Both the position numbers and the translations under genes were made by a program. Shown piece by piece: positions 1,871 to 46,562 of a DNA stretch of 64,000 nt. A model generated the notes under the pieces. The model made no database searches. It was given only the letters and a program-made list of their open reading frames with translations, and was not told where the DNA came from. The stretch is from a virus, in the IMG/VR virus record IMGVR_UViG_3300037470_000672, positions 32,001 through 96,000 of that record; one strand, written 5' to 3'. Position 1 is the stretch's first letter; each line of letters opens with the position of its first letter.

Positions 1871-1906
1871 GTCTCGGAATTTCAAAGATCCGAGCATCCG
1901 TTCACC
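1871..1906 (-). repeat. Solo CRISPR repeat copy (33/36 to array repeat)
   Basis: GTCTCGGAATTTCAAAGATCCGAGCATCCGTTCACC on + strand. Confidence 0.9.
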
Positions 1907-1946
1907 GTGAAAACGGCGCCACAGAGGCGGGTGGCAGGACAACCAA

Positions 1947-2323
1947 CTAGGCGGCTGAGGGCGGAGTGAAGCCAGGGTCTGTCGGCTCCCCCGCAAGCCC
2001 CTCCAAGAGGACGAGCTTGCCGTCCTTCTCGGAGAAGACTTGCTCAGCCTCGGCCGCTACCTCGTGAGCAGTAACCGCCAGCATCTTCAGCCGGGACAGT
2101 CCAGGCTGAATGGCGCCCTCACGGCGGAGCAACTCGGCGAATGTGAGCGCCTGAAGCATCTCTTGGCGGGTCACTGATCGTCATCCTCGTCGTCTGCCGG
2201 CGAAGGCTTCTGCCGCTTCTGCTTCTTGGGGTCAGCCTCCTTGGCGTCTTCGGTCAAGGGCTTCCCGCTTGGGTAGGGCATGTCCTCGGTGATCATTTCG
2301 CCACTGGGTCTGGGCTGGACCAT
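1947..2323 (-). CDS. Two small hypothetical genes (1947..2174; 2171..2323)
   Basis: GTGA overlap; GGAGG RBS before the ATG at 2323. Confidence 0.55.
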
Positions 2324-2345
2324 CGAATCCTCCGTAGTTGTCCTG

Positions 2346-2381
2346 GTCTCGGAATTTCAAGGACCTGAGCATCCACTCAAG
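2346..2381 (-). repeat. Solo CRISPR repeat copy (31/36); contains the stop codon of the upstream gene
   Basis: GTCTCGGAATTTCAAGGACCTGAGCATCCACTCAAG. Confidence 0.9.
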
Positions 2382-2739
2382 CGACCGCAGGCATCCAGCG
2401 AAACCCCATGAACTGAAAGATCCTGCGCAGCTCCTTGGTGAGCTTCAAACGGTCTTTCTCCGTCTTCACCTTCACCGTGTGCAGGTATTCACAATCGGTC
2501 CGCGACGGGGCGTCCAGAACCAGGCGCACCGACACCAAGCCGGAGTCCAAGCAGCGCAACTCACCTCGGAAATCTCGGTTCGCAACCAACGTGAAATCGA
2601 CCCCCACACCCGGCAAACCTCGCTTCCGAGTGCACAAAAGGTCCAAGCCGAACATCTCCAGCACAGACAGGAGCCGAGCCATGTTCTGGCCGCTCAGGGC
2701 GTCGCTCTTCAATCTTCGTAAGACCTCAGATAACGGCAC
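2377..2739 (-). CDS. Hypothetical protein
   Basis: 120-aa ORF in operon orientation. Confidence 0.6.
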   Translation of the reverse strand: MPLSEVLRRLKSDALSGQNMARLLSVLEMFGLDLLCTRKRGLPGVGVDFTLVANRDFRGELRCLDSGLVSVRLVLDAPSRTDCEYLHTVKVKTEKDRLKLTKELRRIFQFMGFRWMPAVA

Positions 2740-2899
2740 TTGAGCGTCCTTTGGATAGAAGAGTCAGGCGAGCGGTCCGTAGCGGCCCTGGGGGGTATGG
2801 ATCGCAGACCGCTCGCCTGACCCAAGCGAGACCAATGGGAAGGTAGGCCCCTACAAAGGGTAGTAGCCACCGTTTTGGTTGTCAAATTCGGGGCTTCTC

Positions 2900-3328
2900 T
2901 CATCGAGCCTCGGTCCAAAACTCCCGAGGACTGATCTGCAAAGCCCTAGCTACCGCCTCCAGCGTTGACACCCGGGTATCGTTTTCTGATGCGTTCAGCA
3001 TCCGATAGAGGCTGCTCCGAGACACCCCCGACCGCTGAGCAAGCGTATCGTAGGTCAAACCGAGCCGGCTCATTCGCTTTTTGACGACCTCGGTGAGACA
3101 AAATTGAAAGGCCACAGCCGATATTTTTTGAACCGGTTGTGCTCGCTTACGGGTGTACAGGCGCTTGCGCCGTTGAATAAGGGCCAAGCTCAGGCGCTTC
3201 ATCCCCCCTTCCGTGAACTCCACATCAACTTGACCCGAGGACGGATGAACAGCCCGGACGATGCCGGGCTGTTTGTCGGAGAGGGTCTCCACCTGGGAGC
3301 CTTCTTTGATGGGCCGGTAGCGGGGCAT
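2900..3328 (-). CDS. XRE-family helix-turn-helix regulator
   Basis: C-terminal LGLTYDTLAQRSGVSRSSLYRML...TLEAVARAL HTH pattern. Confidence 0.8.
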   Translation of the reverse strand: MPRYRPIKEGSQVETLSDKQPGIVRAVHPSSGQVDVEFTEGGMKRLSLALIQRRKRLYTRKRAQPVQKISAVAFQFCLTEVVKKRMSRLGLTYDTLAQRSGVSRSSLYRMLNASENDTRVSTLEAVARALQISPREFWTEAR

Positions 3329-3342
3329 GCTCTCTTGTCTCG

Positions 3343-3378
3343 GTCTCGGAATTTCAAAGATCCGAGCATCTTTTCAAG
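3343..3378 (-). repeat. Solo CRISPR repeat copy (33/36), 14 nt upstream of the XRE ATG
   Basis: GTCTCGGAATTTCAAAGATCCGAGCATCTTTTCAAG. Confidence 0.9.
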
Positions 3379-3571
3379 ACAACAAACAACTCATCACACG
3401 CCAGCTCGGCCGCGTGCGACCATGTCCGTCCGTCGTCCGGGTCTTCACTTCGCGTGACATACTCCAGCTTCTGGACTGCTTTGAGCAGTTTCCCTAGCTT
3501 GGCGCAGGGACTGCAAAGCGCCAGCGGCGCGTTGCAGTCGCCGCAGAAAGCGCACTCGGACTCGGAGCTGC

Positions 3572-3919
3572 TCATGCGCCGTCTCCGGCGTCTTTGCGGA
3601 TCCAATCCTCCGCAGCCTCCAGCCCGTCGATTGCATCCTTGATGTCCCGATCTTGAATGAAGCGCATCACCTGCTCTTCACCATCTCGCTGCCGCACCCT
3701 GCCGACCGAGACAGAGTACATGCGGCCGTTCTGCCCCTCCGCCGTCTGTACCTGGGTACGAACGTGACCGAAGTCGAAGTTGGTGGCGTTTTGCCACTCC
3801 AAACGGGGGCGCGGTGTACGCGCGGCGTACCCACCCTGCGACCGATCGCTGTACCCCTCCTGTGAGGGGTTCCCGTTGTACGACAGATTACTGTTTTGAC
3901 GGTGGTTCCTCTTGCCCAT
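3572..3919 (-). CDS. Hypothetical protein
   Basis: 115-aa ORF downstream of a TTGACA-16-TATAGT promoter (~3957-3984). Confidence 0.65.
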   Translation of the reverse strand: MGKRNHRQNSNLSYNGNPSQEGYSDRSQGGYAARTPRPRLEWQNATNFDFGHVRTQVQTAEGQNGRMYSVSVGRVRQRDGEEQVMRFIQDRDIKDAIDGLEAAEDWIRKDAGDGA

Positions 3920-4414
3920 GGTCTTGTGTTTCCCTCAGTCGTTGGGTGCCGGCTTGACTATACGCAGGACGCTTGGTGTGTCAAGCACGGTACAGGAAAA
4001 ACGCCGTACACGGCGCCAGTTCAGTTTTCTGGATCGGGTTCGGGTGATGCGGAGGGTGGGACCAACTCCTGGAAGCGGGGAGCGATTATTCCTTCCAGCT
4101 CTTCCAATCGCCCATGGACACGTAGTCCTTGGGACACCTGCTCAGCGATGCGCGCCAGACACTTGGTTCGCCCGCAGAAACATAGATTGTTGGGCTCGTC
4201 CGTCATGTGTCTCCCGGAAGGTTCCCATGGTCCACGAAGTGTTGGAGCAATGGAAGCAACACGGCTACTTGCCAGCGCGTCAGAAGCGACCGACGTCGCC
4301 GTCGCGCGCGGCCTCACGCAGCTCCGCGCATGCTTCGAGCTGATCTTCCAACTCCGCGACGCGCTGTTCGAGGTCTTTCACATCGAAAGCGCTCATGCGC
4401 TTCTTTGAGGAGAA

Positions 4415-4441
4415 AGGGGAGCGCTCCGCAGAGCGCTCCCC
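4415..4441 (-). terminator. Probable intrinsic terminator after the ArdC-like gene
   Basis: GGGGAGCGCTC-CGCA-GAGCGCTCCCC hairpin, followed by CTTTCT on the minus strand. Confidence 0.6.
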
Positions 4442-4452
4442 TTGGTTAAGGG

Positions 4453-5424
4453 TCATGCCGCCATCAGGCAGGCGTTCTCGGCCTTGAGTCGCTCGATTTC
4501 GGCCTTCATCTCGGCCAGGGTCATCTCGCTGGCTTTCTTGTCCTTGGCCGGCTTGGGCGCCTGCTCCTCGACGAAGGTGAGGATCTCTGCCGTCGCCTTC
4601 TGCACCCGGTCCGCCACCTTCTCGACCTTCTCCGGGTCGGAGCCGCTCCAGTGCGCGACGTAGCCAAAGGAGTAGCTGGCAGAGTCGACCCCCAGCGCGC
4701 TCATGACGCAGTAGGCCACGCTCTCGGCCTCCACCTCGCGGTAGTCCGTGGGGGTGTGGCACAAGCCCGACTCCTTGCTGTGCAGGATGACGTGGGCCAG
4801 CTCGTGGGCCAGGGTCTTGGCCTGCTGTGCCGGGCTGTTGGCCTCGTTGAGCGCGATGCGCTTCTCCGAGAAGACCACGTAGCCGCCCATGCCGTCGATC
4901 ATGCGCTCGGTCTCGATCGTGTAGCCCTTCTTTTGGGCCAGGTTGCTGAGCGCCGTGAACGCGAGGTCAGCGGCCGGAGACGAGCCGTCGAGGGTCTGGA
5001 TGACGTCCAGCTCGGGCAGGTCCGGACCCTCGGTCTGCGCGATGTCGTAGACGAAGACGGTCTTGAAGAATCGAACGAAGCGGTAGGGCTTCTCCTGCCC
5101 GTCTTCCGTCCGCTTACCCCAGCCGAAGATGGGGGCGCGGATGGCGATCTTTTTCTCGCTGGCCTTCACCCGACGACCGGTGCGGGTCTCCCACTGCCGA
5201 CGCCCCATGACGCGCGAGGCGCCCGGACGCTGGAGGTGGATGAGGAGCTGGTTGGTCCAGGAATACTTCCAGAACATCGCCTGGAAGGCGAGGAACTGGA
5301 CCCAGGCGTTCGAACCGATGAGCGCTTCGACGCCGCGCTTCATCTGCTCGACGAGGTCTTTCGCCTCGCTCTCCTTCTGGGCTTTGAACTGCGCCTTCTG
5401 GTCGGGAGTGAACTGCTTGCCCAT
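4453..5424 (-). CDS. ardC: ArdC-like antirestriction protein (N-terminal ssDNA-binding domain plus HELAH metallopeptidase-like domain)
   Basis: FWKYSWTNQLLIHLQRPGASRVMG..W motif; TLAHELAH; EVEAESVAY. Confidence 0.8.
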   Translation of the reverse strand: MGKQFTPDQKAQFKAQKESEAKDLVEQMKRGVEALIGSNAWVQFLAFQAMFWKYSWTNQLLIHLQRPGASRVMGRRQWETRTGRRVKASEKKIAIRAPIFGWGKRTEDGQEKPYRFVRFFKTVFVYDIAQTEGPDLPELDVIQTLDGSSPAADLAFTALSNLAQKKGYTIETERMIDGMGGYVVFSEKRIALNEANSPAQQAKTLAHELAHVILHSKESGLCHTPTDYREVEAESVAYCVMSALGVDSASYSFGYVAHWSGSDPEKVEKVADRVQKATAEILTFVEEQAPKPAKDKKASEMTLAEMKAEIERLKAENACLMAA

Positions 5425-5431
5425 CGTCTAT

Positions 5432-5496
5432 CCTCCTTCAGCGATCCTTCGCTGATCTGATTTGACAATCGTAGTCCTACAGTGTTTGTGTGTCAA
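5432..5496 (-). promoter_or_regulatory. Promoter TTGACA-17-TACGAT plus conserved leader CAGATCAGCGAAGGATCGCTGAAGGAGG
   Basis: 27 nt of the leader are identical at 28207-28233; related leaders occur at four other promoters. Confidence 0.8.
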
Positions 5497-5547
5497 GCAC
5501 GGATCCGAAAAAGATCAGATCTGCGTGTGCGCGCGGTCACCGTCCAC

Positions 5548-5590
5548 AAAGAAGAACCCCCGGCGACGCTCACTGCGGCCGGGGGCTTTC
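5548..5590 (-). terminator. Probable intrinsic terminator
   Basis: CCCCGGC...GCCGGGG stem followed by TTCTTCTTT on the minus strand. Confidence 0.55.
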
Positions 5591-5844
5591 CTCTGTGTGT
5601 ACTCACACCAGTTCGGGGCGGTCGTAGCCCCAACGCTTAACCGTAGTCCGTTTGCTCAGATCGGTTCGCCCGATGCGCTGTCTTGGGCACGCTAGCCGCC
5701 CAGCTTGCGATCTGACTGTTGGACCGTGGTTGTCCACCGACAAGGTAGAAGAGCATTGCCCGTAGGACGGCTTCAACTCCTTGTTGGCGGGGTGAAAAGC
5801 TACCTTAAACGCGGTCTTTTTCTGGGTCAAGTGTGGGACACAGA

Positions 5845-6177
5845 TCATTTCACCAGTAGGGTCTCGACCAGTGTGGCAAAGCAGATCGCCTTACTCAGCT
5901 CACGGTGAATGATGATGACCTCGGCGAGGCTCCCCGAAGCTGACTTGACGTGGATGACGGTTCTTCCGTCCGAGTACAGGCGGACCATCGCCTCTACACC
6001 GTCCGTCTGGCTGTGGAAGTTGAGGGAGATGCCGCCACTGGCCGAGTCCGGCAGCGTGCCTGCCTCGTAGGCGTCGGCCAAGGCTTCCAGCTCCTCAACC
6101 TCTTCGCGCTGCGGGTAGAAGCCGGAGCAGAGACTGATCTCGCCAAGGCTCTGTCGGAGGAGGCTGTAGTTGATCAT
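5845..6177 (-). CDS. Hypothetical protein
   Basis: ATGA overlap with 6174..6920. Confidence 0.55.
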   Translation of the reverse strand: MINYSLLRQSLGEISLCSGFYPQREEVEELEALADAYEAGTLPDSASGGISLNFHSQTDGVEAMVRLYSDGRTVIHVKSASGSLAEVIIIHRELSKAICFATLVETLLVK

Positions 6178-6920
6178 GTGCGCCTCGACACGATCGCTTC
6201 GTAGTCCGGCGCGCCCTGGAACTCGATGCTCACGACCGGGCGCTCCTCTTCCGGCAGACTGCGGATGTAGTCGCGGAGCGCGATGGCGGGTTCGTTGGCG
6301 AGGGTCATACCCTCCTCGGGGATCTTCGCCTCGATGTTCTCCAGGTCGAAGCCGGCCTCCTGGAGGGTCGTGAGGGTCTTCTCGTGCTGCTCCTCTTCGT
6401 GCTTCGCGCGCCACTCTTCCTGCTCGCGACGGAACTCCTCGTCACGCTGCTTCGCGCGCTCTTCCATCGCCTCCAAGGCACCAGCAAAGGTCGTGTCGGC
6501 GCTGAGCCCCACCTTCTCCAGGACGCCGAGCACAGCAGCCTCGCGCAGCACCAGGAGCATCTCGTGCTCGTAGACGTGTTGCGGATCGGCGCCCGTCTCA
6601 GCAGGATCGTAGTCCGGCGGGAAGACCGTGAAAGGCTCCGCGACGAAGATCCCTTGGTCACCCGCGTGGTCCGAGGGTCCGTTAAAAACGGTCGGCTCAC
6701 CAGCGTGCTCCCAGCACGCCTCGTGGTAGAGCGCGGCGCTATCAAGCGTCTCGTCCTCTTCGTGACCGATGTTGCCGTAGCCGTCGTAGGTCCCCTTGCA
6801 AACCGAGCCGTCTGGCAGGATGGCCACGGCCTGCTGCATCCAGTCCCGGTAACCGGCCGCCGAATACCCAGAGCGAATCGACCGGCCACAGCTCTTGCAG
6901 TTCCACGAGAAGAAACCCAT
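6174..6920 (-). CDS. Hypothetical protein (N-terminal CxxC)
   Basis: Strong RBS, leader and promoter TTGCCC-17-TAGGCT at 6962-6990. Confidence 0.75.
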   Translation of the reverse strand: MGFFSWNCKSCGRSIRSGYSAAGYRDWMQQAVAILPDGSVCKGTYDGYGNIGHEEDETLDSAALYHEACWEHAGEPTVFNGPSDHAGDQGIFVAEPFTVFPPDYDPAETGADPQHVYEHEMLLVLREAAVLGVLEKVGLSADTTFAGALEAMEERAKQRDEEFRREQEEWRAKHEEEQHEKTLTTLQEAGFDLENIEAKIPEEGMTLANEPAIALRDYIRSLPEEERPVVSIEFQGAPDYEAIVSRRT

Positions 6921-7045
6921 CTTGACCTCCTTCAGCGATTCATCGCCGATCTGTTTTTACAAGCCTAAACGTATTGGATACGTAGGGCAAGCACAAAGCG
7001 GGTGTTTGGAGCCGATCTGTTGTGACGGGCGCCCCACCTAACAAT

Positions 7046-7061
7046 CCGCCCGTACGGGCGG
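7046..7061. repeat. 16-bp perfect palindrome CCGCCCGTACGGGCGG (copy 1 of 5)
   Basis: Also at 10183, 30461, 46145 and 60764. Confidence 0.9.
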
Positions 7062-7069
7062 TTTGGGTC

Positions 7070-7279
7070 CTACTTACCTAGCGTCGCAGCTGGCTTCGCG
7101 GTTGGCTTCTCAGCCAGCTTCTGACCAGCGTCCTTCTGCGGCGTCGGTCCGGCGTCAGTCCTGGGCTCGACCGGCGCCTCTTCTTTGGCGGGAGCCTCAG
7201 CGGATTTGTCCGCCTTGGGGGTGCAGGCGATGAGCGCCAGCGCCGAGAGATTGAGACCGATGAGCAGAATGCGCAGCAT
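7070..7279 (-). CDS. Small lipoprotein
   Basis: Hydrophobic signal with LIAC lipobox; low-complexity P/A/K tail. Confidence 0.65.
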   Translation of the reverse strand: MLRILLIGLNLSALALIACTPKADKSAEAPAKEEAPVEPRTDAGPTPQKDAGQKLAEKPTAKPAATLGK

Positions 7280-7321
7280 GTGGAACCTCCATGCGCCGTC
7301 TGCTCCCTCGGGCCTGGACGT

Positions 7322-7957
7322 TCAAGGGGGTTCACGGAGTCCGATGCGGACCTTGAGCCGGTAGGACAACACCAACGAATTCGTACCGAAATCCTTGAAA
7401 ATCGCCTCGGTGACGAAGCGCAGACCCCCGGGTGTAGTGATGGCGGGAGCGATCTCGTACTCGGTCATCGCCAGGGACAGGGTGGTCACGCCGTCGCCGA
7501 GCAACGCCTCATCCTCGACGTAGGCGATCTCAACAGGGGCCGCGCCCTCGGCGCTCACGTACAAGGTGATGTCCTCAAAGAGGGTGGTGATGCTGCGCTC
7601 GTACTGTTCCACCATCTCGAAGGCGACGAACCTGGCTGATTCGATGTCGTCCATGCTGCGCCCAGCTTCTTGTATCCGGGCACGGATGGCGGCGTTCAGG
7701 GCGAACCCGACCTCGGGCGGGACGGTGTTCTCGGGGTAGAGGGGGTAGTACACATTGGACGCGGCAGGGTGGATGTCGTCGTTGTAGCCGTTGATCTGGA
7801 TCAGCTCATCCATCTCGACCTCGACGTACAGCAGGTCGGGGTCGTCTTCGGCTACGACGCCTTGGCCGGGGCCGGCGTCACTCTGTTGGGTCGGATCTGT
7901 ACCGCAGGCGCAAAAAGCCAGGGCGACGAACGGATAGAAGATAAGGGCTCTGTGCAT
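7322..7957 (-). CDS. Lipoprotein
   Basis: Signal peptide MHRALIFYPFVALAFCAC. Confidence 0.65.
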   Translation of the reverse strand: MHRALIFYPFVALAFCACGTDPTQQSDAGPGQGVVAEDDPDLLYVEVEMDELIQINGYNDDIHPAASNVYYPLYPENTVPPEVGFALNAAIRARIQEAGRSMDDIESARFVAFEMVEQYERSITTLFEDITLYVSAEGAAPVEIAYVEDEALLGDGVTTLSLAMTEYEIAPAITTPGGLRFVTEAIFKDFGTNSLVLSYRLKVRIGLREPP

Positions 7958-8071
7958 CGTGGCCTCCTGACAGTACAAGAAGCACGTTAACACATGCCGT
8001 CAAGGGCGCGAAAGCAAAGGGGAAATCTCTAGAAGTCTCCGGAACGTAAAACCCCTTACCTCAGAGAAAGA

Positions 8072-8198
8072 TGGCGGAGAGCGGTGGTCCTGATCCAGTC
8101 TCGGAATTTCAAGGATCCGAGCATCCTTTCAACATCCATAACGCATGCGCGTCCTGACGGGTAGCAGCCGTAGCCCGGGCCTCCCGGGTTCACTCTCC
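8072..8198 (-). pseudogene. tRNA-Ser(GCU) interrupted by a CRISPR repeat plus a 5-bp duplication
   Basis: Acceptor GGAGAGT/GCTCTCC-G-CCA; anticodon arm ACGG-CTGCTAC-CCGT; removing 41 bp gives an 86-nt class II tRNA. Confidence 0.85.
8098..8133 (-). repeat. Solo CRISPR repeat, 36/36 identical to the array repeat, flanked by ATCCA direct repeats
   Basis: ATCCA at 8093-8097 and 8134-8138. Confidence 0.95.
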
Positions 8199-8204
8199 AC
8201 AGGT

Positions 8205-8291
8205 TGGCAGCGGGCAGCGGAATCGAACCACGACGCCTAAGCGCCCTCCAGTTTTCAAGACTGGTCGCTCCCCATGAGCAGTACCCGCTTC
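8205..8291 (-). tRNA. tRNA-Ser(UGA), imperfect stems
   Basis: CCAGT-CTTGAAA-ACTGG anticodon arm, long variable arm, TTCGATT loop, 3' CCA. Confidence 0.7.
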
Positions 8292-8297
8292 ATGTAG

Positions 8298-8389
8298 TGG
8301 TGGCCCGAGCGAGAGTCGAACTCGCATGCCCCTCACAAGGCACCAGGGTCTGAGCCTGGCGTGTCTACCGGAAATTCCACCATCGGGCC
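8298..8389 (-). tRNA. tRNA-Leu(CAG)
   Basis: GGCCCGA/TCGGGCC acceptor, CCAGG-CTCAGAC-CCTGG anticodon arm, TTCGAC loop, CCA end. Confidence 0.9.
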
Positions 8390-8390
8390 A

Positions 8391-8466
8391 TTGTGCGGAC
8401 GGCAGGAGTCGAACCTGCACTGACCGGGATTTGACGCCGGACCCTCTGCCGTTGGGGTACGTCCGC
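8391..8466 (-). tRNA. tRNA-Leu(CAA)-like, short variable arm, degenerate (ends CAA)
   Basis: GCGGACG/CGTCCGC acceptor; GCAGG-TTCGACT-CCTGC T-arm; mismatch in the anticodon stem. Confidence 0.6.
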
Positions 8467-8960
8467 TAAGATTTCTCCTTCCAGCAGGCGCACTGAGGCG
8501 GGCGGTGATACGTACACCACGGCTCCGTTAGCCGGGCTTGCGTGACCGTGCTCTCCTGCGCCTCTCCCTGCGCGCAGCTCAATGGGAGGCATGCCGTACT
8601 TGGCGTGCAACAGCAGCTCCTTGCCCTCCGCTTTGGCTACCCGCCGAACCGTCTTCCAGATGCGCGCCGTCTCAGCGCGTAGATCGACCCCAGGGCGTGC
8701 CTCCCAAAGCGCCCGCTTACGCTCCCTGGCCGCCTCCTGGGCGGCGCAGCGTTTGGTCCGCTGCTTGGCTCGGACCCTGGCAGCTCGCTCGGCTTGCGCT
8801 GTCTGACGCGCCTCTTTCTTGGCTTCGATGGTTGGACAAGCGCGCTTCACGAGCCTGCCGGTCTTGTCGGAGCACGGTAGGCAGTAGCGGCGGGTATCGT
8901 CCAGGCGAGGTTTGCTCGGGGCGAGCTTACCCGTCTCGCAGCGGGGGCAGACCCAGCGTC

Positions 8961-10003
8961 TCACGCGGCGGGCTTCTTCCGGGTCTTGTAGGTGGCCTTG
9001 AGCGTGTCGAACAGGTCGGTGTTGTCGAGCATCGCAACGAAAGCGTCGAGGGATGTGCGGTCGATGGTGACGCGATCGACGGTACCGCTGACGGTGCCCA
9101 TGAGACCGCCGGATACGGGAAGCCCGATTTCTTCGAGGCGCTTGCGCTGCGCGTACCACTCGGTGTTGTAGGTCTCGACACGTGCCATCTTGCGCAAGTG
9201 CTCCTCGCGCGTACGCGCCTGCTTTTCACCCTGCTGCTGAACGTACTCGTCCCAGGGCATCAGGACTTCTTGCGGTCGCGCGACCCCGGAGAGCCACTCT
9301 TTGGGTGCGCCGCGGCACAGAGCGACGTTGATGCCCTTCCCTCCGGACCGTTCCTTGGCCCAGCACCCGCGGATATTTCCCACGTAGCCGTCGAAGCCGA
9401 GAATGATCCCCTTCCTCACGTGGCGGAAACCAGCTTTGGTCGAGATGCCGATGGCGTACGTCTCGCCGATCTGGATGTCTTTGCGTTTCATGCCCAGCTC
9501 ACTCCCAGGTCCAACTCCTGGGCCTTTTGCAGTACCTCATCCAACCGCTCCAGGCGGTCTGTGAGGCGGTTGTCGTCGTAACCGCACAGGATGTGCCGCC
9601 CCGATCGTCGGAGGGCCACGGTGCCGTCCTCCTGGGGAACGGTTCGCATCTCGCCACCGTAGGTCTCGGTCTCGGTGCGGAAGGGGGCGCGGACCTTGTC
9701 CTGGTTGAGCGCGCGCATGATAGCGCGGCGCATGTTGGCCACCTCTTCGGCGGGGACCGACCCGCGCAGATCTGGGTCCGCGTACCCCAGCATCCGGAGA
9801 AGGACCACAGCCGTGCGATTGGCCACATTGAGCGAGCACTCGGACTCGCTGTAGGTCACCCACCCACCCTGACAGGACGCACAACCCCACTCGGGAACGG
9901 GCACGCCGTCCGCCTCAGCGAACTCGCGCGTCTGCTCGCAAAGGAAACAATGCTCCCGTACCTCTTGCTTGGGGCCGTCGGTGGGGCAGAAAGTAACGCT
10001 CAT
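8961..10003 (-). CDS. Two hypothetical genes (8961..9491; 9488..10003)
   Basis: ATGA overlaps; promoter TTGCTC-17-TATACT at 10043-10071 with conserved leader. Confidence 0.65.
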
Positions 10004-10137
10004 GAGGAACCTCTTCAGGGAGTCTTCTCTGATCTGAGCTTGAGTATAGACAACGTAAGTGATCAGAGCAAGCCTGATCTGCGTGTAGGTGGTGTTTTTT
10101 TTTCTACTGCCTCGACGTTCGAGATATTCTACGGCTA

Positions 10138-10173
10138 GTCTCGGAATTTCAAAGATCCGAGCATCTTTTCAAC
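10138..10173 (-). repeat. Solo CRISPR repeat copy (34/36, variant B), 9 nt from the palindrome core at 10183-10198
   Basis: GTCTCGGAATTTCAAAGATCCGAGCATCTTTTCAAC. Confidence 0.9.
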
Positions 10174-10209
10174 ACACTCAATCCGCCCGTACGGGCGGAT
10201 CACATCTCG

Positions 10210-11350
10210 TCATCGCAGTAGCTCCTCCCCGTCCTTGTAGACGGCGTTCGCCAGCATGTCCGACTCGTTGCGAGGGTAGGAAGAGGTGGAGCTGTTCCAC
10301 GCCTTCTCGCGCAGCGCCTTTTTGCTGGGCGGACGCCAGCGGGGCGGCATCTCGTAAGCGCTGCGCAAGCGGTGGTGGAAGTTCTGCTGCGGCCCCGGAA
10401 TGTCGTGCCGAGCTGCACCAGACCAGGCAAGCTCACCTTTCTTGGCAAGCCAGTCGAGGGCAGCCTTGCGGGAGGATAGCCGCACAACCTTCGTCTCGGG
10501 GTGGCGCAGGTCGGTCGTCTGCTCGATGCCGTAGAAGACGGTCATCAGTTCGTTCTTCCTTTTTTCATCTCGGCCATGAGGAGGTCAGCTTGGACGGCGG
10601 TCTCTTCAGGAGAGAGGTCTGAAGTACCGCCTCGCTGGCAGCGCTCCCCCATGACGATCAACAGCTCCCGGACCTCGTTATCGGTCCATTGCTGAGGCTT
10701 TCCCGCGCGGTAAGTGTCGAGGAGTTTCTCCAGCGCGCTACTCTCCTCATCGGCCGCGAAACCAAGCGCTGCGGCCTCTTCCTGGAGGGAAAGAAGAAGC
10801 TGCACCTCCTGTCGGCGCTTGTCCAGCTCGCACTCCCACGCAACGATCTTGTTGGCAAGCGTCTTCGCCCTTTCTGGGTCCAAACGATCGACGAACCGTC
10901 TGAACCAGAAATCGCTCCGTTTCGTTGCGAGCTTGTCCGGGTATGTCACTCCTGACCCGCCTCAGTAACGATGATCTTGGGCACCGGTTCATCACCACAT
11001 TGGAACGGCTCGCTTGAAGCGATCGGTCGGGTATCCAGCCCCTCCGTGTAGAACTGGTGCCGAATGACTTGGACGACATCGAATGCGGCCCGGTGCGCAT
11101 TGGGGACCAGAGGGTTGTGGATGCTCGGTCCCCCGCTGGCGAAGTATGCCCCGCCCCCCATCCAGTTGACGATCTGGTGAAGCACGTCACGCGCTTCTGC
11201 CAACCCGTCGACGTAGCCCGGAAGATGCTGCGTGTTGTCGAGGACCGCGCTGGCAAGCTGTCCCATGCCCAAACGCGCCAGCGTGTCACACGCTTGCATG
11301 ATGGCACGCGCCTGACCCTCGGTCAGCTCCAGCCGGTACAGCTTCGTCAT
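10210..11350 (-). CDS. Three hypothetical genes (10210..10545; 10545..10949; 10946..11350)
   Basis: Coupled ORFs; TTGACG-17-TATAGT promoter immediately upstream of 11350. Confidence 0.65.
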
Positions 11351-11467
11351 GCTCTGACTATAGGCGCGCTATGTTATAGCGTCAAGCCGGGGCTACCTGA
11401 TCTTGCGTTGTCGGAGGTTGTTCCAGGTTCTATCGGACCACTCCAGCAGGGGCAGGGAAGAAGCTCT

Positions 11468-11503
11468 GTCTCGGAATTTCAAGGATCCGAGCATCCATTT
11501 AAC
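11468..11503 (-). repeat. Solo CRISPR repeat copy (34/36)
   Basis: GTCTCGGAATTTCAAGGATCCGAGCATCCATTTAAC. Confidence 0.9.
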
Positions 11504-11686
11504 CTTTCGCGGTTTCGGTGTCGTACGCGCCCTCAAAGCAGGTAAGTCATCGATCGGCGTCTCGGCGAATTTTTGGATCCGACACCTGCCCCGAGTAGAG
11601 CGCGTACACAGCCCACATCTCAAAAGGAGCCCGCAGAAACTCATCCAAGGAAGCGGCCGTCAGGGTATCAAGTAAAGCATGTGCGT

Positions 11687-12415
11687 TCATACGTGCTTCC
11701 GAAGAAAAGACGAATAGTATTCATTCTCCCATAGCAACCTACCCATACCTCGACCAGGAACACCTCCTACCCGGCATACCCGTAGGCTCTCGCGTGGCCA
11801 ACGGCCGCCACCCAGCATTCCGTAGTTCGGATGGATCGGCAGGTCGTGCTTGGCTAGGTAGGCGTACACGTCCTGTATCTTCCAGTACCCGATCGGTGCC
11901 AGGGTATTGAGGCTGCGTAGGCCGTGCTTCATCATGCGGATCGCTCTGCCGCCCGACTCGTCTCGGCGTATTCCTGACAGGTAGCGAGTGTATGGAAGTT
12001 TCTTGAAACAGCGCAGAAATACCTTGTCGGTCTGCCTATCGATCTCGTTTTCGCTCCCGTCAATACCTGTGTAGTCTGCCAAGACCTCCTGGTAGGGCAT
12101 AGGAAATCTCGTCAGGAACGCGTCCCGGACGATAGCGTTGTATGGGTTCTCTCCTGGCTGCTGGATAATGTGCACGAGAAGGACCTTATCTTGGCAGACT
12201 TCCCAAAGCAGATGTGCGCAGGTGACCGAGTCCTTGCCCCAAGACACGCTGAGGTAGCAAGGGCCGTCCGCCACGAACTCGGAGATTGCGCTCCTGGCCT
12301 GCTCAGCGCGCCGCTGGAAGACAGGAAGGCTGGCGTAGGCGAGGTCGGCTTCGGCCAGGGTAGCCCACATCTCGCGGTCGGCTTGGGTGTGGGAGGGGAC
12401 TGGAATCAGGCCCAC
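11687..12415 (-). CDS. CysH/PAPS-reductase-like protein of a type IV-B locus
   Basis: PP-loop SVSWGKDS; SGIRRDESGGR; LAPIGYW..DVYAYL...LPIHPNY. Confidence 0.8.
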   Translation of the reverse strand: MGLIPVPSHTQADREMWATLAEADLAYASLPVFQRRAEQARSAISEFVADGPCYLSVSWGKDSVTCAHLLWEVCQDKVLLVHIIQQPGENPYNAIVRDAFLTRFPMPYQEVLADYTGIDGSENEIDRQTDKVFLRCFKKLPYTRYLSGIRRDESGGRAIRMMKHGLRSLNTLAPIGYWKIQDVYAYLAKHDLPIHPNYGMLGGGRWPRESLRVCRVGGVPGRGMGRLLWENEYYSSFLRKHV

Positions 12416-12422
12416 GGAAGCG

Positions 12423-14313: not shown

Positions 14314-14319
14314 CGATCC

Positions 14320-23988: not shown

Positions 23989-24172
23989 GTATCGGAATTC
24001 CATATATCCGAGCATCTTTTCATCCCCACGCACGCCTCGAACGCCCGTAGCTGCCCACTCGTGTCTCGGAATTTCAAGGATCCGAGCATCCTTTCAACCA
24101 GTCGAGCTACCGCACGGCGACGGTCGCGTCGCTCTTGTCTCGGAATTTCAAGGATCCGAGCATCCTTTCAAC
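23989..24172 (-). CRISPR. CRISPR array: three 36-nt repeats, two 38-nt spacers
   Basis: Repeats at 24137-24172 and 24063-24098 (identical) and 23989-24024 (degenerate trailer, 29/36); starts 23 nt after the cas12 stop. Confidence 0.95.
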
Positions 24173-28200: not shown

Positions 28201-28211
28201 CTTGCACTCCT

Positions 28212-29428: not shown

Positions 29429-29435
29429 TTCCACG

Positions 29436-30423: not shown

Positions 30424-30597
30424 GTGCCCGGCTCTTTCATTTCCGAGACGTACCCTCAATCCGCCCGTACGGGCGGATCGGGGTTGAAGAGAGGGTGCTC
30501 AGATCCTTGGAATTCCAAGACCGACGCGCTGTCAGCAACACCAACCCGAGCCGTCTTAGGTGTCTCGGAATTTCAAGGATCCGAGCATCCTTTCCGG
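30415..30597. CRISPR. Head-to-head repeat cluster: degenerate + copy 30415-30449, + copy 30483-30521, minus copy 30562-30597
   Basis: Aligned by eye to the array repeat; 33-nt and 40-nt intervening segments. Confidence 0.75.
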
Positions 30598-32498: not shown

Positions 32499-32522
32499 GG
32501 GAACCTCCGTACAGCGAGCTTA

Positions 32523-34441: not shown

Positions 34442-34485
34442 CCTTGTTACCTTTCATGTACGGTCAGTCTCGTCAAGAGGTTCGG

Positions 34486-34971: not shown

Positions 34972-34988
34972 GCTTCCTCCGTCCGTGC

Positions 34989-35516: not shown

Positions 35517-35525
35517 CCGCCCATC

Positions 35526-40503: not shown

Positions 40504-40519
40504 GGGGTCGAAGCTCCTA

Positions 40520-42751
40520 TCAGGACACACCCGGTCCGCGGCTGATGAACATCGGCATGTAGAGCACATCCACTGTTGTGGCGACGCCGTCAGCGCCTTG
40601 AACGATGCCGACCTGGAAGACAACGCGGTTGTTCGCTCCTGCGGGGATGGACGTGTCTACCTGACCCGCCGTAGTCGACAGGTAGCAGGGAAGGCCGTTG
40701 AAAGCCGACGCAGGGGCAGACACGAAGCGAATCGGAACCAAAGACCCTGGCGCGGTGTAAATCTGCGCCGGGTTGCCTGCCGTCGCTGCCGCTCGGGTCA
40801 CGCCCGTTACCAGCCCATCGGATAGTGTTCCGGTGTCGGCATCTGCTAGGCCGACGTCTCCGTCAGATTCGATCTGTACGACGTCTCCTGCCGTCAGCGT
40901 GTCGTTGGTCGTGAAGATGAGACCGGCGCCGCCTGCGATGTTGCTGAACTGCGGAAGGTCAACCTTCTCCAACCCCGCCGTTGAGTCCAAGACGAGAAAG
41001 TCGTCCGCGCCGTCCGTGACGGTAAGCGCGGTCGCGCTCGCGTTGGGGATGGTGTAGGTCGAGTCATCTGCGGAGCTGAGCAACAGGCTGCCGCTCGTCG
41101 TAGTGCTCAGGGCGAGGTTGCCGGCGTCCGCCGTCACGTTGCTGGCGCCGGTGCCGTCAATCGAAAACGCACCGGTCGCAAGCATGTCGAACGTGCCGGT
41201 GACGTCGATGTCGAGGTTGGCGCCTGCGTTGATGTCGATCAATCCGCCGGCCGTCAGGTCGATCTCATCGTCCGATGAGACGAGCACGTTGCCCGTACCT
41301 GCCCCGGCGTTCGTGGCGCTGAGAGTCAGGTTCTCCGCACCGGCGCTGTTCCCGGTGACCGTCAGGTTGGAGCTGGTCACCGCGTCGAGGGAGATGCTCG
41401 TGGTGGCGTCGACCGTTACCGCAGTCCCGTCTACGTCTACGTTGACCGCGGCGTCGATGACCACGTCACCAGAGGTGGTCGTGTTGAGCGTCAGGTTCCC
41501 GGACGCCGCCGTGACGTTGGACGCCCCTGTCCCGTCGATGCTGAACGCCCCTGTCGCCAGGATGTCTACGGTCCCTGTGACATCGACATCCAGGTTGGCT
41601 CCGGCGTTGATGTCAACCAAGCCGCCTGCGGTGAGGTCGATCTCATCATCTGCGGAGAGGAGAACGTTCCCGGCACCGGCGCCTGCGTTGGTAGCCGCCA
41701 GCGTCAGGTTGATGGTCCCGGCGTCGTTGCCTGTGACCGTGAAGTTCGAGGAGGTGATGGCGTCCAGGGAGATGGATGCCGTGGCGTCGAAGAGGATGTT
41801 CGCCGCGTCTGCGTCGATGTCGCCTGTGGCGTTGAGGACTACGTTCCCGGACGTAGTTGTGCTGAGCGTCAGGTTTCCGGCGTCCACGGAGACGTTCGAT
41901 GCGGCTGTGCCGTCGATGGAAAACCCGTTGGTGCCCGACATCTGGACGTCGAAGACCGTCCCATCGAAGTCGAGCTGGGTATCGATGTCGATACCCCCGG
42001 TCGCAGTGATGAGGAGCTGCTCGGTGCCGGAGATGACAACGTCACCCTCAGCCGCCGACGTCGTGATCGTGTTGCCGTTTTCGTACGCTGTTTGGAGCGT
42101 TACCGCCGAAGCTGAGATGTCGGAGAACGACAACGGTGTAGAGCTACCGAAAGCGGTCTCCCAGGCGCCGTCCGCGCCTGCCCGCATGACGGACACGTTG
42201 ACCTTGCGGATCGTGCCCTGGGCTGTGTTGTCCGTATCGAACTGGTTCTGGGTGAAGTCCTCGTCCGTGGCGGTTGTGCCGATGCCGCGGATGGTCAGGG
42301 TGGTGCCGACGTGGCTGAGTACCTCGAACAGCCCGTTGTTCTGCGGATCGGCGGCGCCTGTGATCTGAATCAGATCACCAGCCGCGAACGTAGCCGTTCC
42401 TGTCGTGACCACCGTCGGGTTGGAGGTCGCCGGAACTCCGGCCGTGAACCCTCCCGCAGCGACGGTATCGTTCGTAGAGGTCGGAAGGTAGTTGACAACC
42501 AAGCCGCCCGTTTGGGCGGCCACCGTTTCGTACCCGCTGTTCAGGTAGAGGTGGTTATCGTCGAAGGAAACAGTCTCGGCCTGCTCCGTAACCATCGCAC
42601 CGCGAACCGTGAGGTTCGCGGTAATCAGTACATCGTTTTGAAGCTCCATCCGAGCACTGATCTGGAGATTGTCAGCCGCCTCGATGGTTCGAGGGAGAAA
42701 CGGCGCGGAGGCGTCCAAGATCTGGATGTTGTCTACTTGGTTTCCGGCCAC
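40520..42751 (-). CDS. 743-aa virion fibre/decoration-like protein with internal ~120-aa repeats
   Basis: Repeated FSIDGT..SNV..GNL.L.TTTSG units; C-terminal domain paralogous to 42760..43524. Confidence 0.7.
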   Translation of the reverse strand: MAGNQVDNIQILDASAPFLPRTIEAADNLQISARMELQNDVLITANLTVRGAMVTEQAETVSFDDNHLYLNSGYETVAAQTGGLVVNYLPTSTNDTVAAGGFTAGVPATSNPTVVTTGTATFAAGDLIQITGAADPQNNGLFEVLSHVGTTLTIRGIGTTATDEDFTQNQFDTDNTAQGTIRKVNVSVMRAGADGAWETAFGSSTPLSFSDISASAVTLQTAYENGNTITTSAAEGDVVISGTEQLLITATGGIDIDTQLDFDGTVFDVQMSGTNGFSIDGTAASNVSVDAGNLTLSTTTSGNVVLNATGDIDADAANILFDATASISLDAITSSNFTVTGNDAGTINLTLAATNAGAGAGNVLLSADDEIDLTAGGLVDINAGANLDVDVTGTVDILATGAFSIDGTGASNVTAASGNLTLNTTTSGDVVIDAAVNVDVDGTAVTVDATTSISLDAVTSSNLTVTGNSAGAENLTLSATNAGAGTGNVLVSSDDEIDLTAGGLIDINAGANLDIDVTGTFDMLATGAFSIDGTGASNVTADAGNLALSTTTSGSLLLSSADDSTYTIPNASATALTVTDGADDFLVLDSTAGLEKVDLPQFSNIAGGAGLIFTTNDTLTAGDVVQIESDGDVGLADADTGTLSDGLVTGVTRAAATAGNPAQIYTAPGSLVPIRFVSAPASAFNGLPCYLSTTAGQVDTSIPAGANNRVVFQVGIVQGADGVATTVDVLYMPMFISRGPGVS

Positions 42752-42759
42752 TTTTACCT

Positions 42760-44543
42760 CTACGGACGCCTTGACACGTACTGGGGTTGAATCAGAACAC
42801 TCGGAGCAATCGTGATACCGTCCGCACCTTGGAGCACACCGACCGTGAAGACCACGTTACCCGCTGTCAGCGGTGGGGTCAGACTACCGATTCCGGCCGT
42901 TGTGCTCAAGAAGACCCGCTGACCGTTCGCGGAGGCGAGCGGCGCGACGCTGAAGCGCACAGGCCCGAGGTCGCCGGACGTGGCGACCTGAACGGAGCTA
43001 CCCGCCAAAACGGCTTGGCGAGCACTCCCCACCGCATAAAAATTCCCTCCCGAAAAACTGGCAGCGGCGCGGAGCACCTCTCCTGCTGCGTCGATGGCCA
43101 CGATGTGACCCAAAGACAGAGCCTCGGCTGCAACGAGGACGACACCCCCTACGCCTCCTGCGATCCCGATCCAAAGGGCAGCGCTTGGGGTGGCGTCCAG
43201 ACAGATGAACACCGAGCTGGTCGCGGTGTTGTACCAGTGCGACCCGACCCCGTAGCCTTCGGTGCTGTCGTTGGTTGGGAGCGGATCGCTCGTCGTGCGA
43301 TTATCAAGCTGCCCGGATGTGAATGTAAGAACTTCGTCAAGGAAGTCCGGGACGATCTCGATGTCGATGTCCCCATCGACAAAGAACTGCTTGAGGTTCC
43401 GCGCGCCTTCGATGTCCGCAGGTAACCGCTCCGTAAGAAGTACTTCACCTGGCTCAAGAAACGTCTGGTAGACGCCCGCCAGGTGCTGTCGTTCAGCGCT
43501 GAGATTGGTGATGCGGACCCGCACAAGTTAGAGCCTCCGCAGCATCTCCGCGAGACGCTTACGCCGCTCTACTTCATCTTCCAAAGAGGCGACCACTTCC
43601 AGCTCCTTCTTGTCCTCTTCGGCCTTCACTCGCGCCTCCACGCGGGCGACGAGAGCTTCTTTCTCGACCTGCTTGACCTTCCTGACCAGGAACTTTGGGG
43701 GCTCAGGGAGGTAGGTCTCGTCGCCTGAGTGCTCAGGCCCGCCGCGGAACACGAGCAGACGCAGCGCGAGCAGGACGAGGCCAGAAATTGCAGCGAGCGC
43801 AGCCCAGCACTCCCAGCGCCGGGCCTGGTAGAACGCCTTGAGCTTCTTCCACATCACCACGCCTCGACGCGGAAGTCTGTACCCGCGGCCGAACGAACAG
43901 CGATGCCGGACTCATACCGCTGGCGGTAGGTCCGGGTCTCTTCGGGGAAAACTACACCGTGCACGGTTGTACCGTCGAACGAAATCTCCAGATTGTTGGT
44001 AGCGCCGTCGTTGCTGATCTGAAAGGTCCCAGCAGCGCGCCGAGAAACGATCGCACCCTGCGGCGGGGTTCCGGTCGGGGTGACGTTCCCTCCGCCCAGA
44101 GGAGGCGCTGGACGTGCCAGGCGACCGATTTCTGTCGGCCGGGGTTCAGATGTGCCGATGTCTCCGCCTGGTCGCACGATGGGCGTGGGGTCGACCTGAG
44201 CCTCAGCATCCGTGTCACCGATGAGCCAGGCGTTGTCGGCGAAGTCGGCTGTCGCTGTACCCGCTTGAAAGAAACGGACCGAGCGAACCCCGGACGGTGG
44301 TGTGGGGGGCCAGCCTGCGGGAAACGGCATGCTCTACTCCTCGTCGACGGGGACCTTCTCTATAGCCTGTTCCAGTAGTTGCGCAACAGACATCCCCCGC
44401 TTCAGAGCTGCCTTCGAGAGAGCTTCGTACGTTACCCGAGGGATGGCGACGAAGTAGAAGTCCCCAAGAAACGCCTCAGAGGCGCCTTGCTGAAGTTCCT
44501 CCTGCCCTGGCTCTGGTAGAATCGCAGGTCGTGCCCGTACCAT
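42760..44543 (-). CDS. Virion-region genes (42760..43524; 43528..43860 single-TM; 43854..44330; 44334..44543)
   Basis: Coupled ORFs. Confidence 0.6.
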
Positions 44544-44557
44544 ATCTCAGGTTCTCG

Positions 44558-45355
44558 TCAGGTCGTGGGATCTAGGATCTTACTCCTGGCACCGAGAGAA
44601 TACGGCGCCAAGCCGAAGTCGACAGGCGTGAGTGGCTGGGAACGCGGCGTAGGCGCAAACCGCACAGCTCCGTCTAGAGCGTCGGTTGCGGACGGGAAGT
44701 GTACCTGCCCTTGGTACTGCGCCGACTGAGCAAAGGCCATGTTCACGGCAACTATACGCGGTAACCCGCTCGGAAAGAACGCCTCAAAGGTTACGTCACA
44801 CAACGTCATGAACGCAATAATAGAGTCTCGTGCGGTAGACGAAGCTTGCCCCCCGTACAAGCCTATTCCGGAGTTGGGGAGGTAGAGCTTGACCTTGCGC
44901 GGAGCGAAGACCGTGGTGGTTCCTACAGACCCCTCCGGCCCGTACCGAGGAAGGATGTGTCGCCGGAGCCAGACGATAGCCGCGCGTATGTCGACGTTTC
45001 GATCAATGGCTCCGATGTTGGCTAGTGCTGCCAATCTAGCCGTGTTCACTTGCTGACCGGGCTGACCGCTAGCAGTGATCGTCAGGTCTATGTCTGTCGT
45101 GAAGACGGCCGTAAAGGTAATGAGCCGTTCACCGGTGCTCATCCACTGGTACAGCGGGAGGGTCGCCCCTGGAATCTCTTTGGGGTTGTAGTTGACCTGT
45201 TTTTGGTCGTTCAGCGAGTCGGGGAAATACTGGAAGCGCAGGAAGTCCCCTATCGGGGTGTCGTCCTGATCGTCCAGGGTCAGAAGAAGCGCATCTGCCC
45301 GCTTTTCGTTGTGAACGGGGTTGAGCGCGCTGGCTAGTGATCTCAGCGCGACCAT
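44558..45355 (-). CDS. Contractile tail tube/initiator-like protein
   Basis: FQYFPDSL.DQKQVNY; LPLYQW...GER.ITFTAVF; DVTFEAFFPSGLPR pattern. Confidence 0.55.
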   Translation of the reverse strand: MVALRSLASALNPVHNEKRADALLLTLDDQDDTPIGDFLRFQYFPDSLNDQKQVNYNPKEIPGATLPLYQWMSTGERLITFTAVFTTDIDLTITASGQPGQQVNTARLAALANIGAIDRNVDIRAAIVWLRRHILPRYGPEGSVGTTTVFAPRKVKLYLPNSGIGLYGGQASSTARDSIIAFMTLCDVTFEAFFPSGLPRIVAVNMAFAQSAQYQGQVHFPSATDALDGAVRFAPTPRSQPLTPVDFGLAPYSLGARSKILDPTT

Positions 45356-45370
45356 GCGTTCCCTTCTGGG

Positions 45371-46447
45371 CTACGCGGCTTTCTTCTTGCCGCTGGCCTT
45401 CTTCTTCTTTCCACGACGCCAGGCGCCGTACTTCTCACGATAGGCCGCGTTGTACCCTGCCTTGTAGGCGGGGTTCACGCTGAAGCGCTTGGTCTGACCG
45501 TTCGGACCGGAGCACTGGCACTGGTAGTTGGCGCATCGGCAACTCCAGTCATCGGTCTCGCCACGCGGTGTGCTCTTGTAGCCCGGAAGGTTCGCACCAC
45601 CGATGTCCGAACCGCCACGCGGTCCCGTAGCGTTGAAGGGGTTTTGCTCCTTCTCCGCCAGGCTTCGATCGAATTCGAGGAAGACTGCGCTCAGTTCTTC
45701 AAGAAGGTCTTCGTTCACGCTGCGACCCCATCAGCCGCCGCGGCTGGGTTTGGGTACTCTTTGAGCTTCGCTTCCCAATTCACTTCTTCTACACGGTATA
45801 CCGAAACGAGGCGAAGCTCAAACTCCGGATCTGCCCTCAGAACATGGCGGAAATCTCCACTTCGATCCGGGTTGAACATGAAAAACGTACCCAGTTTGCC
45901 GGTTCGGCGGTTCTTGGACAGACCGAGAAAAGCGCCGGGAGTCGCACGTCGGAGCTGCTTGTGCGCATCCGAGGAGCCGTGCGGAGCAAGTACCCCACAC
46001 AAGCGCTTCCAGTCATACCGTACAGCTTTGGCGCCTTTCCGAGCGACGAAACGATCGGCGCGAACGTGGCACTCCGTCAGGACAACGTCTGTCCCGCCTT
46101 CAGCTTGCACACCTACCACATGGTCTACCATGGGAAATTCTCGTCCGCCCGTACGGGCGGATTCAGCGGGCGCCTGTGATTGGCTTCCCCTCACCGAGGG
46201 CTTGCAGCGACGCTTCGACGCTCTCACGCAGGTGCAGCAGAATCTGCTTGGCCTCCTCGAACTGGTCGCCGCGGATGGCCTGGAGCGCGTGCCCGAGCGT
46301 CGCCTGATGCACCGAGATCGACTCGTAGGCGGTTTTCTTGTTCACCCCGAGCTGCTCGGGGGTCTTGGACAGACGCCAACCTGCGTAGGGGCCGTCCCCT
46401 AAGGCGACGCTGCGCATCTCTTCAAGGAGGCTGTTCGGGTTGCTCAT
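45371..46447 (-). CDS. Three small hypothetical genes (45371..45718; 45715..46131; 46163..46447)
   Basis: Coupled ORFs; GGAG RBS before 46447. Confidence 0.55.
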
Positions 46448-46459
46448 GCAGGCTCCGGC

Positions 46460-46562
46460 GTCTCGGAATTTCAAATATCCGAGCATCTGTTCATTGGTGC
46501 GGGCCATATCCACCGGATTGGCCGTGGTCTCGGAATTTCAAAGATCCGAGCATCTTTTCAAC
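46460..46562 (-). CRISPR. Orphan mini-array: repeat 46527-46562 (34/36), 31-nt spacer, degenerate repeat 46460-46495
   Basis: Direct reading; same repeat family as the 23989 array. Confidence 0.85.

Follow-up and report, generated by a model that had tools for sequence, protein, structure and literature searches.

Phages punctuate their messages by means of endoribonucleases, as at the RNase III sites of T7 or where T4 RegB cuts at GGAG, and Csy4 and Cas12a have been engineered for mRNA processing. Here we analyse a 36-nt CRISPR repeat of a soil phage (IMG/VR record IMGVR_UViG_3300037470_000672; 175,906 bp), of which a 64-kb window (the whole stretch of 64,000 nt that was studied, bases 32001-96000 of the record) contains the gene for a type V effector and copies of its repeat scattered among the phage genes. 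The closest described systems are those of type V-M, with effector Cas12m. Cas12m is guided by one CRISPR RNA (crRNA) of 50-60 nt and processes its own precursor crRNA (pre-crRNA); tested members, variants with a D-E-D triad included, show protospacer adjacent motif (PAM)-dependent binding of double-stranded DNA (dsDNA) without cutting, which blocks transcription (PMC11013384). The scaffold of Cas12m2 is a stem plus a pseudoknot, nucleotides -36 to -30 having been omitted from the final cryo-EM model (PMC10442227). Single repeats are known from elsewhere. Viral solitary repeat units (SRUs) act as RNA anti-CRISPRs (Racrs) by binding Cas proteins (PMC10651486), and in phage Cas12r of the Thermus Lalka phages a single repeat with 18 nt of flank makes a functional guide (10.64898/2026.04.20.719267).

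The phage system resembles that of MmCas12m/Cas12m2, GoCas12m and MsCas12m (PMC10442227, PMC11013384) in its effector, a full-length homolog that measures about 590 aa and has the RuvC triad D-E-D, and in its 36-nt repeats with stem and pseudoknot, the guide on the 3' side and an array beside the gene; Cas1 was not found. It differs from published Cas12m systems in having, throughout its 176 kb, some 19 additional repeats, alone or in pairs, that occupy gene junctions, operon tails and two open reading frames (ORFs); nothing similar is found in PMC10442227, PMC11013384 or the MvCas12m preprint (10.64898/2026.09.14.751636), the latter describing one array of eight spacers only. An earlier note on this DNA, made from the letters alone, knew of no described system with this layout, and our literature searches likewise found no paper on dispersed Cas12m repeats.

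Genes were called by self-trained gene calling on the full record, and repeat copies were sought by a repeat-family search, a mismatch-tolerant scan and an indel-tolerant nhmmer profile. Coordinates are those of the window unless marked as genome coordinates. The window holds 13 copies (12 minus, 1 plus) and the whole phage 31 (30 minus, 1 plus), made up of a 6-repeat main array, a 3-repeat mini-array 3' of cas12m and about 19 further sites. Solo sites sort into three classes, named junction, tail and in-ORF after their position among the genes. The copies and the effector gene are as follows.

1871-1906, minus strand: solo repeat, tail class, 40 nt past the upstream stop and 46 nt upstream of a sigma70-like promoter (1824-1796)
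2346-2381, minus strand: solo repeat, junction class; TGA stop of the upstream gene within the repeat, GGAGG Shine-Dalgarno (SD) sequence, ATG 22 nt downstream
3343-3378, minus strand: solo repeat, junction class; followed after 14 nt by the ATG of gene 2900-3328
8098-8133, minus strand: solo repeat, tail class, identical to the consensus; no start codon within 60 nt
10138-10173, minus strand: solo repeat, tail class, directly after a GC-rich hairpin CCGCCCGTACGGGCGG (10171-10201) with no U-tract
11468-11503, minus strand: solo repeat, tail class, 82 nt upstream of a sigma70-like promoter (11385-11357)
23989-24172, minus strand: mini-array 3' of cas12m; repeats 24137-24172, 24063-24098 and a degenerate terminal one, 23989-24024; two 38-nt spacers
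24196-25974, minus strand: cas12m effector gene (P0001, 592 aa), with Cas12m structure match, RuvC triad and zinc ribbon
30414-30449, plus strand: claimed degenerate copy, about 76% by eye with two gaps; unconfirmed, lies 72 nt upstream of the plus copy and is perhaps the remnant of a decayed one
30486-30521, plus strand: sole plus-sense copy, 7 mismatches; behind the only plus-strand genes and directly after the hairpin at 30449-30479
30562-30597, minus strand: solo repeat, tail class, directly after an intrinsic terminator (30633-30610) and convergent with the plus copy
46460-46562, minus strand: two-repeat mini-array; repeats 46527-46562 and 46460-46495, 31-nt spacer; begins 2 nt past the upstream stop
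Genome 34346, 35343, 55989, 78460, 78527, 120496, 128577, 141239, 142359, 145787 and 163394: the junction sites of the whole phage

All 12 minus-sense copies listed in the earlier note were recovered, at just the coordinates it gives, as members of one repeat family. Its statement that the 15 spacer-proximal nucleotides are invariant in 11 copies also held: the window has exactly 11 instances of TTGAAATTCCGAGAC, and 12 at two mismatches or fewer where 0.11 are expected by chance (12 hits were reached in 0 of 100 shuffles). The plus-sense copy that it placed at 30483 is real (recovered by the mismatch-tolerant scan and by nhmmer, E=3e-9) and starts at 30486, while the very degenerate one at 30415 was absent from both the scan and the profile search at E<=10. 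The only extra candidate from the profile, a weak, gapped match on the minus strand (genome 148699-148722, E=0.01), is possibly a decayed copy.

Residues 18-544 of the effector match the Cas12m structure 23vw_A with E=2.2e-80, followed by 8pm4_A (E=3e-23) and the UnCas12m4a structure 23vu_A (E=2e-14); the C-terminus carries a CxxC...CxxC zinc ribbon (Pfam PF07282, Cas12f1-like TNB, 1.3e-10), and the RuvC triad is D293-E443-D534. Among 28 homologs the first triad position is D in 21, N in 5, H in 1 and G in 1, the second E in 23, D in 3, H in 1 and P in 1. Judged by homology to characterised Cas12m over its full length, the protein is a Cas12m of type V-M. The Cas12 of the earlier note has to be specified as Cas12m, and the Cas12m proteins that have been tested bind DNA but leave it uncut (PMC11013384). 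Self-processing of pre-crRNA and PAM-dependent dsDNA binding without cleavage are assumed by homology for the phage protein.

The mini-array begins 23 nt past the cas12m stop codon, and 11 nt separate the end of its terminal repeat from the TTG with which gene 23633-23977 starts. The main array lies outside the window (6 repeats, genome 3-419); its leader is AT-rich and its repeats recur every 73-78 nt. No Cas1 was found in the phage, and the solo sites have one or two repeats, which sets them apart from canonical adaptive arrays. At the far contig end (genome 175765-175906; L063) two repeat copies duplicate part of the main array (genome 1-419; L064), three spacer-repeat units being absent, and the assembly therefore closes on itself through the main array. 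The differing array version means that either the population is heterogeneous in its array or the assembly jumped from one repeat to another. Although labelled as linear and as 83% complete, the record is apparently self-closing. DNA contigs from four soil and sediment runs match the reference identically and only break or are mis-joined at repeat copies; no presence/absence variants of the copies were seen in them.

What has been kept in the copies is the part of the repeat expected to contact the effector. Among the 23 copies that do not belong to the main array, conservation is 83-100% at positions 12-36, the covarying position 21 excepted, and only 52-87% at positions 1-8, in line with the distal drift described earlier. 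These variable 5' 8 nt are the counterpart of Cas12m2 nucleotides -36 to -30. Each pair of stem 2 (13-18 with 29-34) is kept in 29-31 of the 31 copies, and stem-1 pair 8:21 covaries, being G-C in 13 copies, A-T in 13 and G-T in 4. Across 28 phages with unrelated repeats, changes on both sides occur at all 10 pairs of stem and pseudoknot; paired cells amount to 87.9%, against 63.3% in shuffles (0 of 500 reach the observed value) and 33-44% with partners slid, and the covariation score is 0.639 against 0.195. Minimum free energy (MFE) folding of single repeats returns stem 2 only, with unremarkable z-scores of -0.1 to -2.0, so that the case for structure rests on covariation and not on energy. 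The pattern of substitutions indicates that the solo copies retain the stem-plus-pseudoknot scaffold, that is, the part bound by the effector, under selection at the RNA level.

The two in-ORF copies (genome 126270 and 127873), located in the two genes between portal and head protease, are read in different frames and keep the fold, and one of them has TTGGAA in place of TTGAAA, which would create a stop codon. The repeat thus acts as nucleic acid and not as peptide, since these copies use different frames yet keep the fold. A peptide-coding repeat was ruled out on the same frames and because the frame of an internal ATG is not continued into downstream genes. The flanks of the copies have no common motif except one hairpin at three sites; the dispersed unit is therefore the 36-nt repeat alone, and a longer mobile unit, similar to a miniature inverted-repeat transposable element (MITE) or an insertion sequence (IS), was rejected.

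The gene map comprises 247 genes, 237 of them on the minus strand, with 90% of the genome coding and a median intergenic gap of 13 nt. At all 21 repeat sites the repeat is oriented like the genes around it (p=5e-7). That orientation tracks transcription, as the earlier note had proposed, is borne out by the sole plus copy, which lies 62 nt behind plus-strand genes that end at 30423. It had named uniform decay and random orientation in a larger copy set as grounds for abandoning its idea; the larger set has all sites in sense, with drift confined to the 5' 8 nt. Non-array sites are intergenic in 17 of 19 cases (p~1e-15).

At the 11 junction sites 10-26 nt separate the repeat from the start codon that follows, and an SD usually comes directly after the repeat. 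At most of them the 'guide' is simply the SD and start of the phage gene next in line. The two-repeat mini-array at 46460-46562 has a GGAG SD and an ATG 12 nt after the second repeat, with an alternative ATG 19 nt after the first. The TGA stop of the upstream gene lies inside the repeat at genome 34346 and 142359. Three tail-class copies (genome 874, window 10138 and the plus copy) come right after a hairpin CCGCCCGTACGGGCGG that lacks a U-tract. In a scan confined to promoters of the sigma70-like type, none was found in the 100 nt that precede each of the six solos of window 1500-12000, and a promoter of the solos' own was ruled out for this type at these six sites; two sigma70-like promoters lie downstream of solos in the same interval. 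The T4 late-promoter motif TATAAATA is absent from the phage genome.

Identical GC-rich hairpins CCGCCCGTACGGGCGG occur at 7034-7064, 10171-10201, 30449-30479 and 60752-60782 and at genome ~915-940. Two, followed by TTT, look like terminators, and each of the three that lack a U-tract is found 5-8 nt ahead of a solo repeat. The 40-nt segment 30522-30561 is the flank of both facing copies (30486 plus, 30562 minus), and the two 'guides' would be fully complementary RNAs.

The 24-nt repeat core has no exact match in the viral, metagenome or genome collections searched, which prevented a synteny test with a close relative. For the effector, more than 280 homologs of 550-620 aa and 45 IMG/VR loci were collected. 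Phage-borne Cas12m is common, since at least 45 viral contigs (IMG/VR loci L016-L060) encode relatives; the MvCas12m preprint of September 2026, in contrast, states that it reports the first Cas12m in a bacteriophage (10.64898/2026.09.14.751636). Nearly all relatives have an array immediately 3' of cas12m, with repeats ending in G(A/C)GAC. Solo copies are present in L053/54, L055, L059 and L024; L009/G001 has a 7-repeat array and about five solo sites, and L017/G005 four separate repeat loci. In these scattered-repeat relatives the solo copies match each phage's own, unrelated repeat, nearly all on its strand, and several lie 2-13 nt before start codons or in the 5' untranslated region (5'UTR) of cas12m itself. 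Because they follow each phage's own array repeat, the solo copies are tied to Cas12m. The check that the earlier note had suggested, a search of the whole phage and its relatives, thus yielded 31 copies phage-wide and scattered own-repeat copies in some relatives. Scattering is lineage-specific, and its patchy presence among Cas12m phages makes the solo copies an optional add-on.

Long degenerate arrays with very irregular spacing (51-326 nt) occur at L014:7937-10213, where about 30 repeats extend over 2.3 kb, at L013:11884-12871 and at L050 (G003:87541-90053). They show compensatory stem changes between neighbouring repeats, and antisense ORFs were called over them.

The reading that we favour is based on the existence of the copies and their connection with Cas12m, on selection acting at the level of RNA, on their sense orientation and placement, and on their recurrence in relatives. 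It holds that the scattered copies are working Cas12m scaffold elements within the polycistronic transcripts of the phage, serving as docking or processing sites, with control of the phage's own operons as their likeliest effect; we give it a probability of roughly 0.5. In a first step, which we consider likely, each copy would be transcribed in sense as part of an mRNA, on which the phage Cas12m would dock and probably cut just 5' of the copy, as on pre-crRNA. The downstream RNA would then begin with a Cas12m-bound handle having adjacent phage sequence as its 'guide', at junction sites the SD and start region of the next gene. Post-transcriptional control could come about by cistron separation, mRNA stability or occlusion of the ribosome site. 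The products of this event at operon tails would be guide-like RNAs that stand alone, and the hairpin without U-tract before three tail copies could protect the upstream cleavage product. Own-transcript control is favoured because the junction copies put SD and start codon in guide position and because three tail copies sit just after a possibly protective hairpin. That about 20 extra single copies of the handle sit between the genes and all point in the direction of reading suggests that the phage uses a CRISPR protein on its own mRNAs. A more far-reaching version, in which Cas12m is the reader of the phage's own messages at cistron junctions and operon tails, cutting, stabilising or translationally gating about 20 viral mRNAs, with released ends that may guide against related phages, is tentative and, in our view, rather unlikely as a whole.

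The resemblance to mRNA punctuation by T7 RNase III, T4 RegB and engineered Csy4 or Cas12a, namely an intercistronic element beside an SD and a dedicated RNA-binding nuclease, is a functional analogy only. Here the proposed reader, unlike in those systems, is a phage-encoded CRISPR effector acting on copies of its own crRNA handle.

Several points weigh against own-transcript control. None of the 24 sequencing runs listed as containing the stretch is an RNA run. Both the mechanism and the exact site of pre-crRNA cleavage by Cas12m are unsettled in the literature (PMC11013384, PMC10442227), and if the cut fell at the extreme 5' edge of the repeat it would strip the stop codons from two upstream genes, which is awkward for simple processing. 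Two relatives (G002 and G004) have the cas-adjacent array only, and in G003 all 26 copies fall within a 2.5-kb, apparently cas-adjacent, zone; scattered copies are therefore not needed for Cas12m function. Furthermore, placement alone does not show function, since a median gap of 13 nt puts any tolerated insertion near a start codon, and the closeness to start codons is largely what such insertions into short gaps would give.

The main rival, which we regard as doubtful, is dispersed guide production. Each solo would be a one-repeat crRNA gene cut from mRNA, and the resulting Cas12m complexes would silence co-infecting relatives, mobile elements or host genes. It fits the tail class better than own-transcript control does, as these sites (1871, 8098, 10138, 11468 and 30562) have no downstream cistron to regulate, and the Cas12r precedent indicates that a single repeat is enough for guide formation in a phage (10.64898/2026.04.20.719267). 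Guides of the phage's own sequence would be harmless where the repeat end (GAC) takes the PAM position, since Cas12m silences by binding (judging from PMC11013384).

Targets, on the other hand, did not turn up. Within the phage, none of the guides matches a second site at five mismatches or fewer in 24 nt beyond chance; the single tail-class guide that was searched is without an exact match among 185,579 species genomes (GTDB); and at junctions the guide is no more than the SD and start of a gene of the phage itself. Three array spacers also have no target in the IMG/VR or JGI metagenome collections searched, and only a chance match in INPHARED (E=0.5). The search of downstream 20-mers suggested in the earlier note thus gave no target for the tail guide searched and no second site within the phage, and an internal CRISPR interference (CRISPRi) network was ruled out by the latter result.

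The proposal in the earlier note, a delocalised crRNA or a Cas12 processing site at each solo repeat, divides accordingly. The phage has its own type V system, the effector-bound part of the repeat is kept, the handle is in sense with a 'guide' on its 3' side, and the arrangement recurs in relatives. The distributed-guide part fares worse, with junction 'guides' that are the next gene's SD and start, no second-site match, and no target for the guide and spacers searched. A Cas12m processing or docking site is at least as likely as a delocalised crRNA.

Both remaining explanations are less likely than own-transcript control and dispersed guides. That the copies are non-functional litter, spread by recombination with arrays or another copy mechanism into harmless places, is improbable. 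Their variable presence among Cas12m phages agrees with it, as do an intergenic placement and start-codon spacing that fit tolerated insertions into short gaps, the negative Cas1 search (no adaptation genes) and the irregular arrays of relatives. Litter would, however, hardly follow transcription at all 21 sites, decay only in its 5' 8 nt, preserve stem 1 through compensatory G-C/A-T changes, or hold fold and frame in two in-ORF copies, one of which avoids a stop with TTGGAA.

Least likely of all, in our view, is a Racr-like decoy, in which solo handles would soak up a host type V-M effector with a compatible repeat or buffer the phage's own effector: viral SRUs do bind Cas proteins (PMC10651486) and the protein-binding scaffold is retained here, but the repeats are cognate to an effector that the phage itself encodes, their 24-nt core is in no bacterial genome among the GTDB representatives, and the six solos in window 1500-12000 are, unlike typical SRUs, without a sigma70-like promoter within 100 nt upstream.

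The position among known single-repeat systems follows the same lines. The solo copies are like viral SRUs and Racrs (PMC10651486) in being single, mostly intergenic repeats in a virus with the Cas-binding structure kept. They are unlike Racrs in that the phage encodes the cognate effector and arrays, with about 19 copies inside operons and no sigma70-like promoter of their own; no sign of mimicry of a host repeat was seen, the core being in no GTDB representative genome. CreR and crlRNA (10.1101/2023.03.03.530964, 10.1101/2024.12.27.630466) offer another parallel, as there a single repeat with its flank regulates instead of serving immunity, and some relatives of our phage have a solo copy just upstream of cas12m. 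Their guides pair partially with a promoter elsewhere, whereas the flanks in our phage match no second site in its genome and mostly consist of the 5' end of the gene that follows. Cas12r of the Lalka phages (10.64898/2026.04.20.719267) is likewise a phage-encoded type V system without adaptation genes, but belongs to another effector family, cleaves, and has not been reported with dispersed repeats. The phage system is thus a member of type V-M whose solo copies resemble SRUs/Racrs and cr-like RNAs but lack defining features of both.

Some neighbouring features deserve mention. The phage genes include a T4-type portal with inteins, a head maturation protease and a UvsX-like recombinase. The portal gene (L061:10618-14745; genome 128618-132745, minus) owes its enlarged size, 1375 aa, to intein splicing domains together with an HNH endonuclease. 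The gene whose stop lies inside the solo repeat at genome 142359 (L062:4390-5358; genome 142390-143358, minus) encodes a PD-(D/E)XK or Cas4-domain-like exonuclease, matching a PHROG exonuclease (3e-22) and a 'CRISPR/Cas system associated' family (1e-17); it could be an ordinary recombination nuclease. A 69-nt cassette occurs in three copies (5432-5500, 6926-6994 and 28206-28274) and reads on the minus strand as a sigma70-like promoter (TTGACA-17-TACGAT), then a hairpin CAGCGAAGGATCGCTG, then a GAAGGAGG SD; it is probably a shared early-promoter/5'UTR module. Finally, a tandem duplication at 41097-41918, with a period of ~378 nt (73-74% identity), lies within a 743-aa ORF (40520-42751, minus) and resembles a repeated 126-aa domain.

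Cas12m has so far been known only as a DNA-binding defence silencer, and lone viral repeats only as decoys against host CRISPR. An effector with arrays and about 20 selected sense handles in the phage's own operons points to a third use, either acting on the virus's transcripts or supplying mRNA-derived guides genome-wide. If true, either use would widen the known roles of type V systems in viruses. It would also explain the guide supply of array-poor phage systems without adaptation genes, and would provide a natural compact part for the RNA-level insulation of genes.

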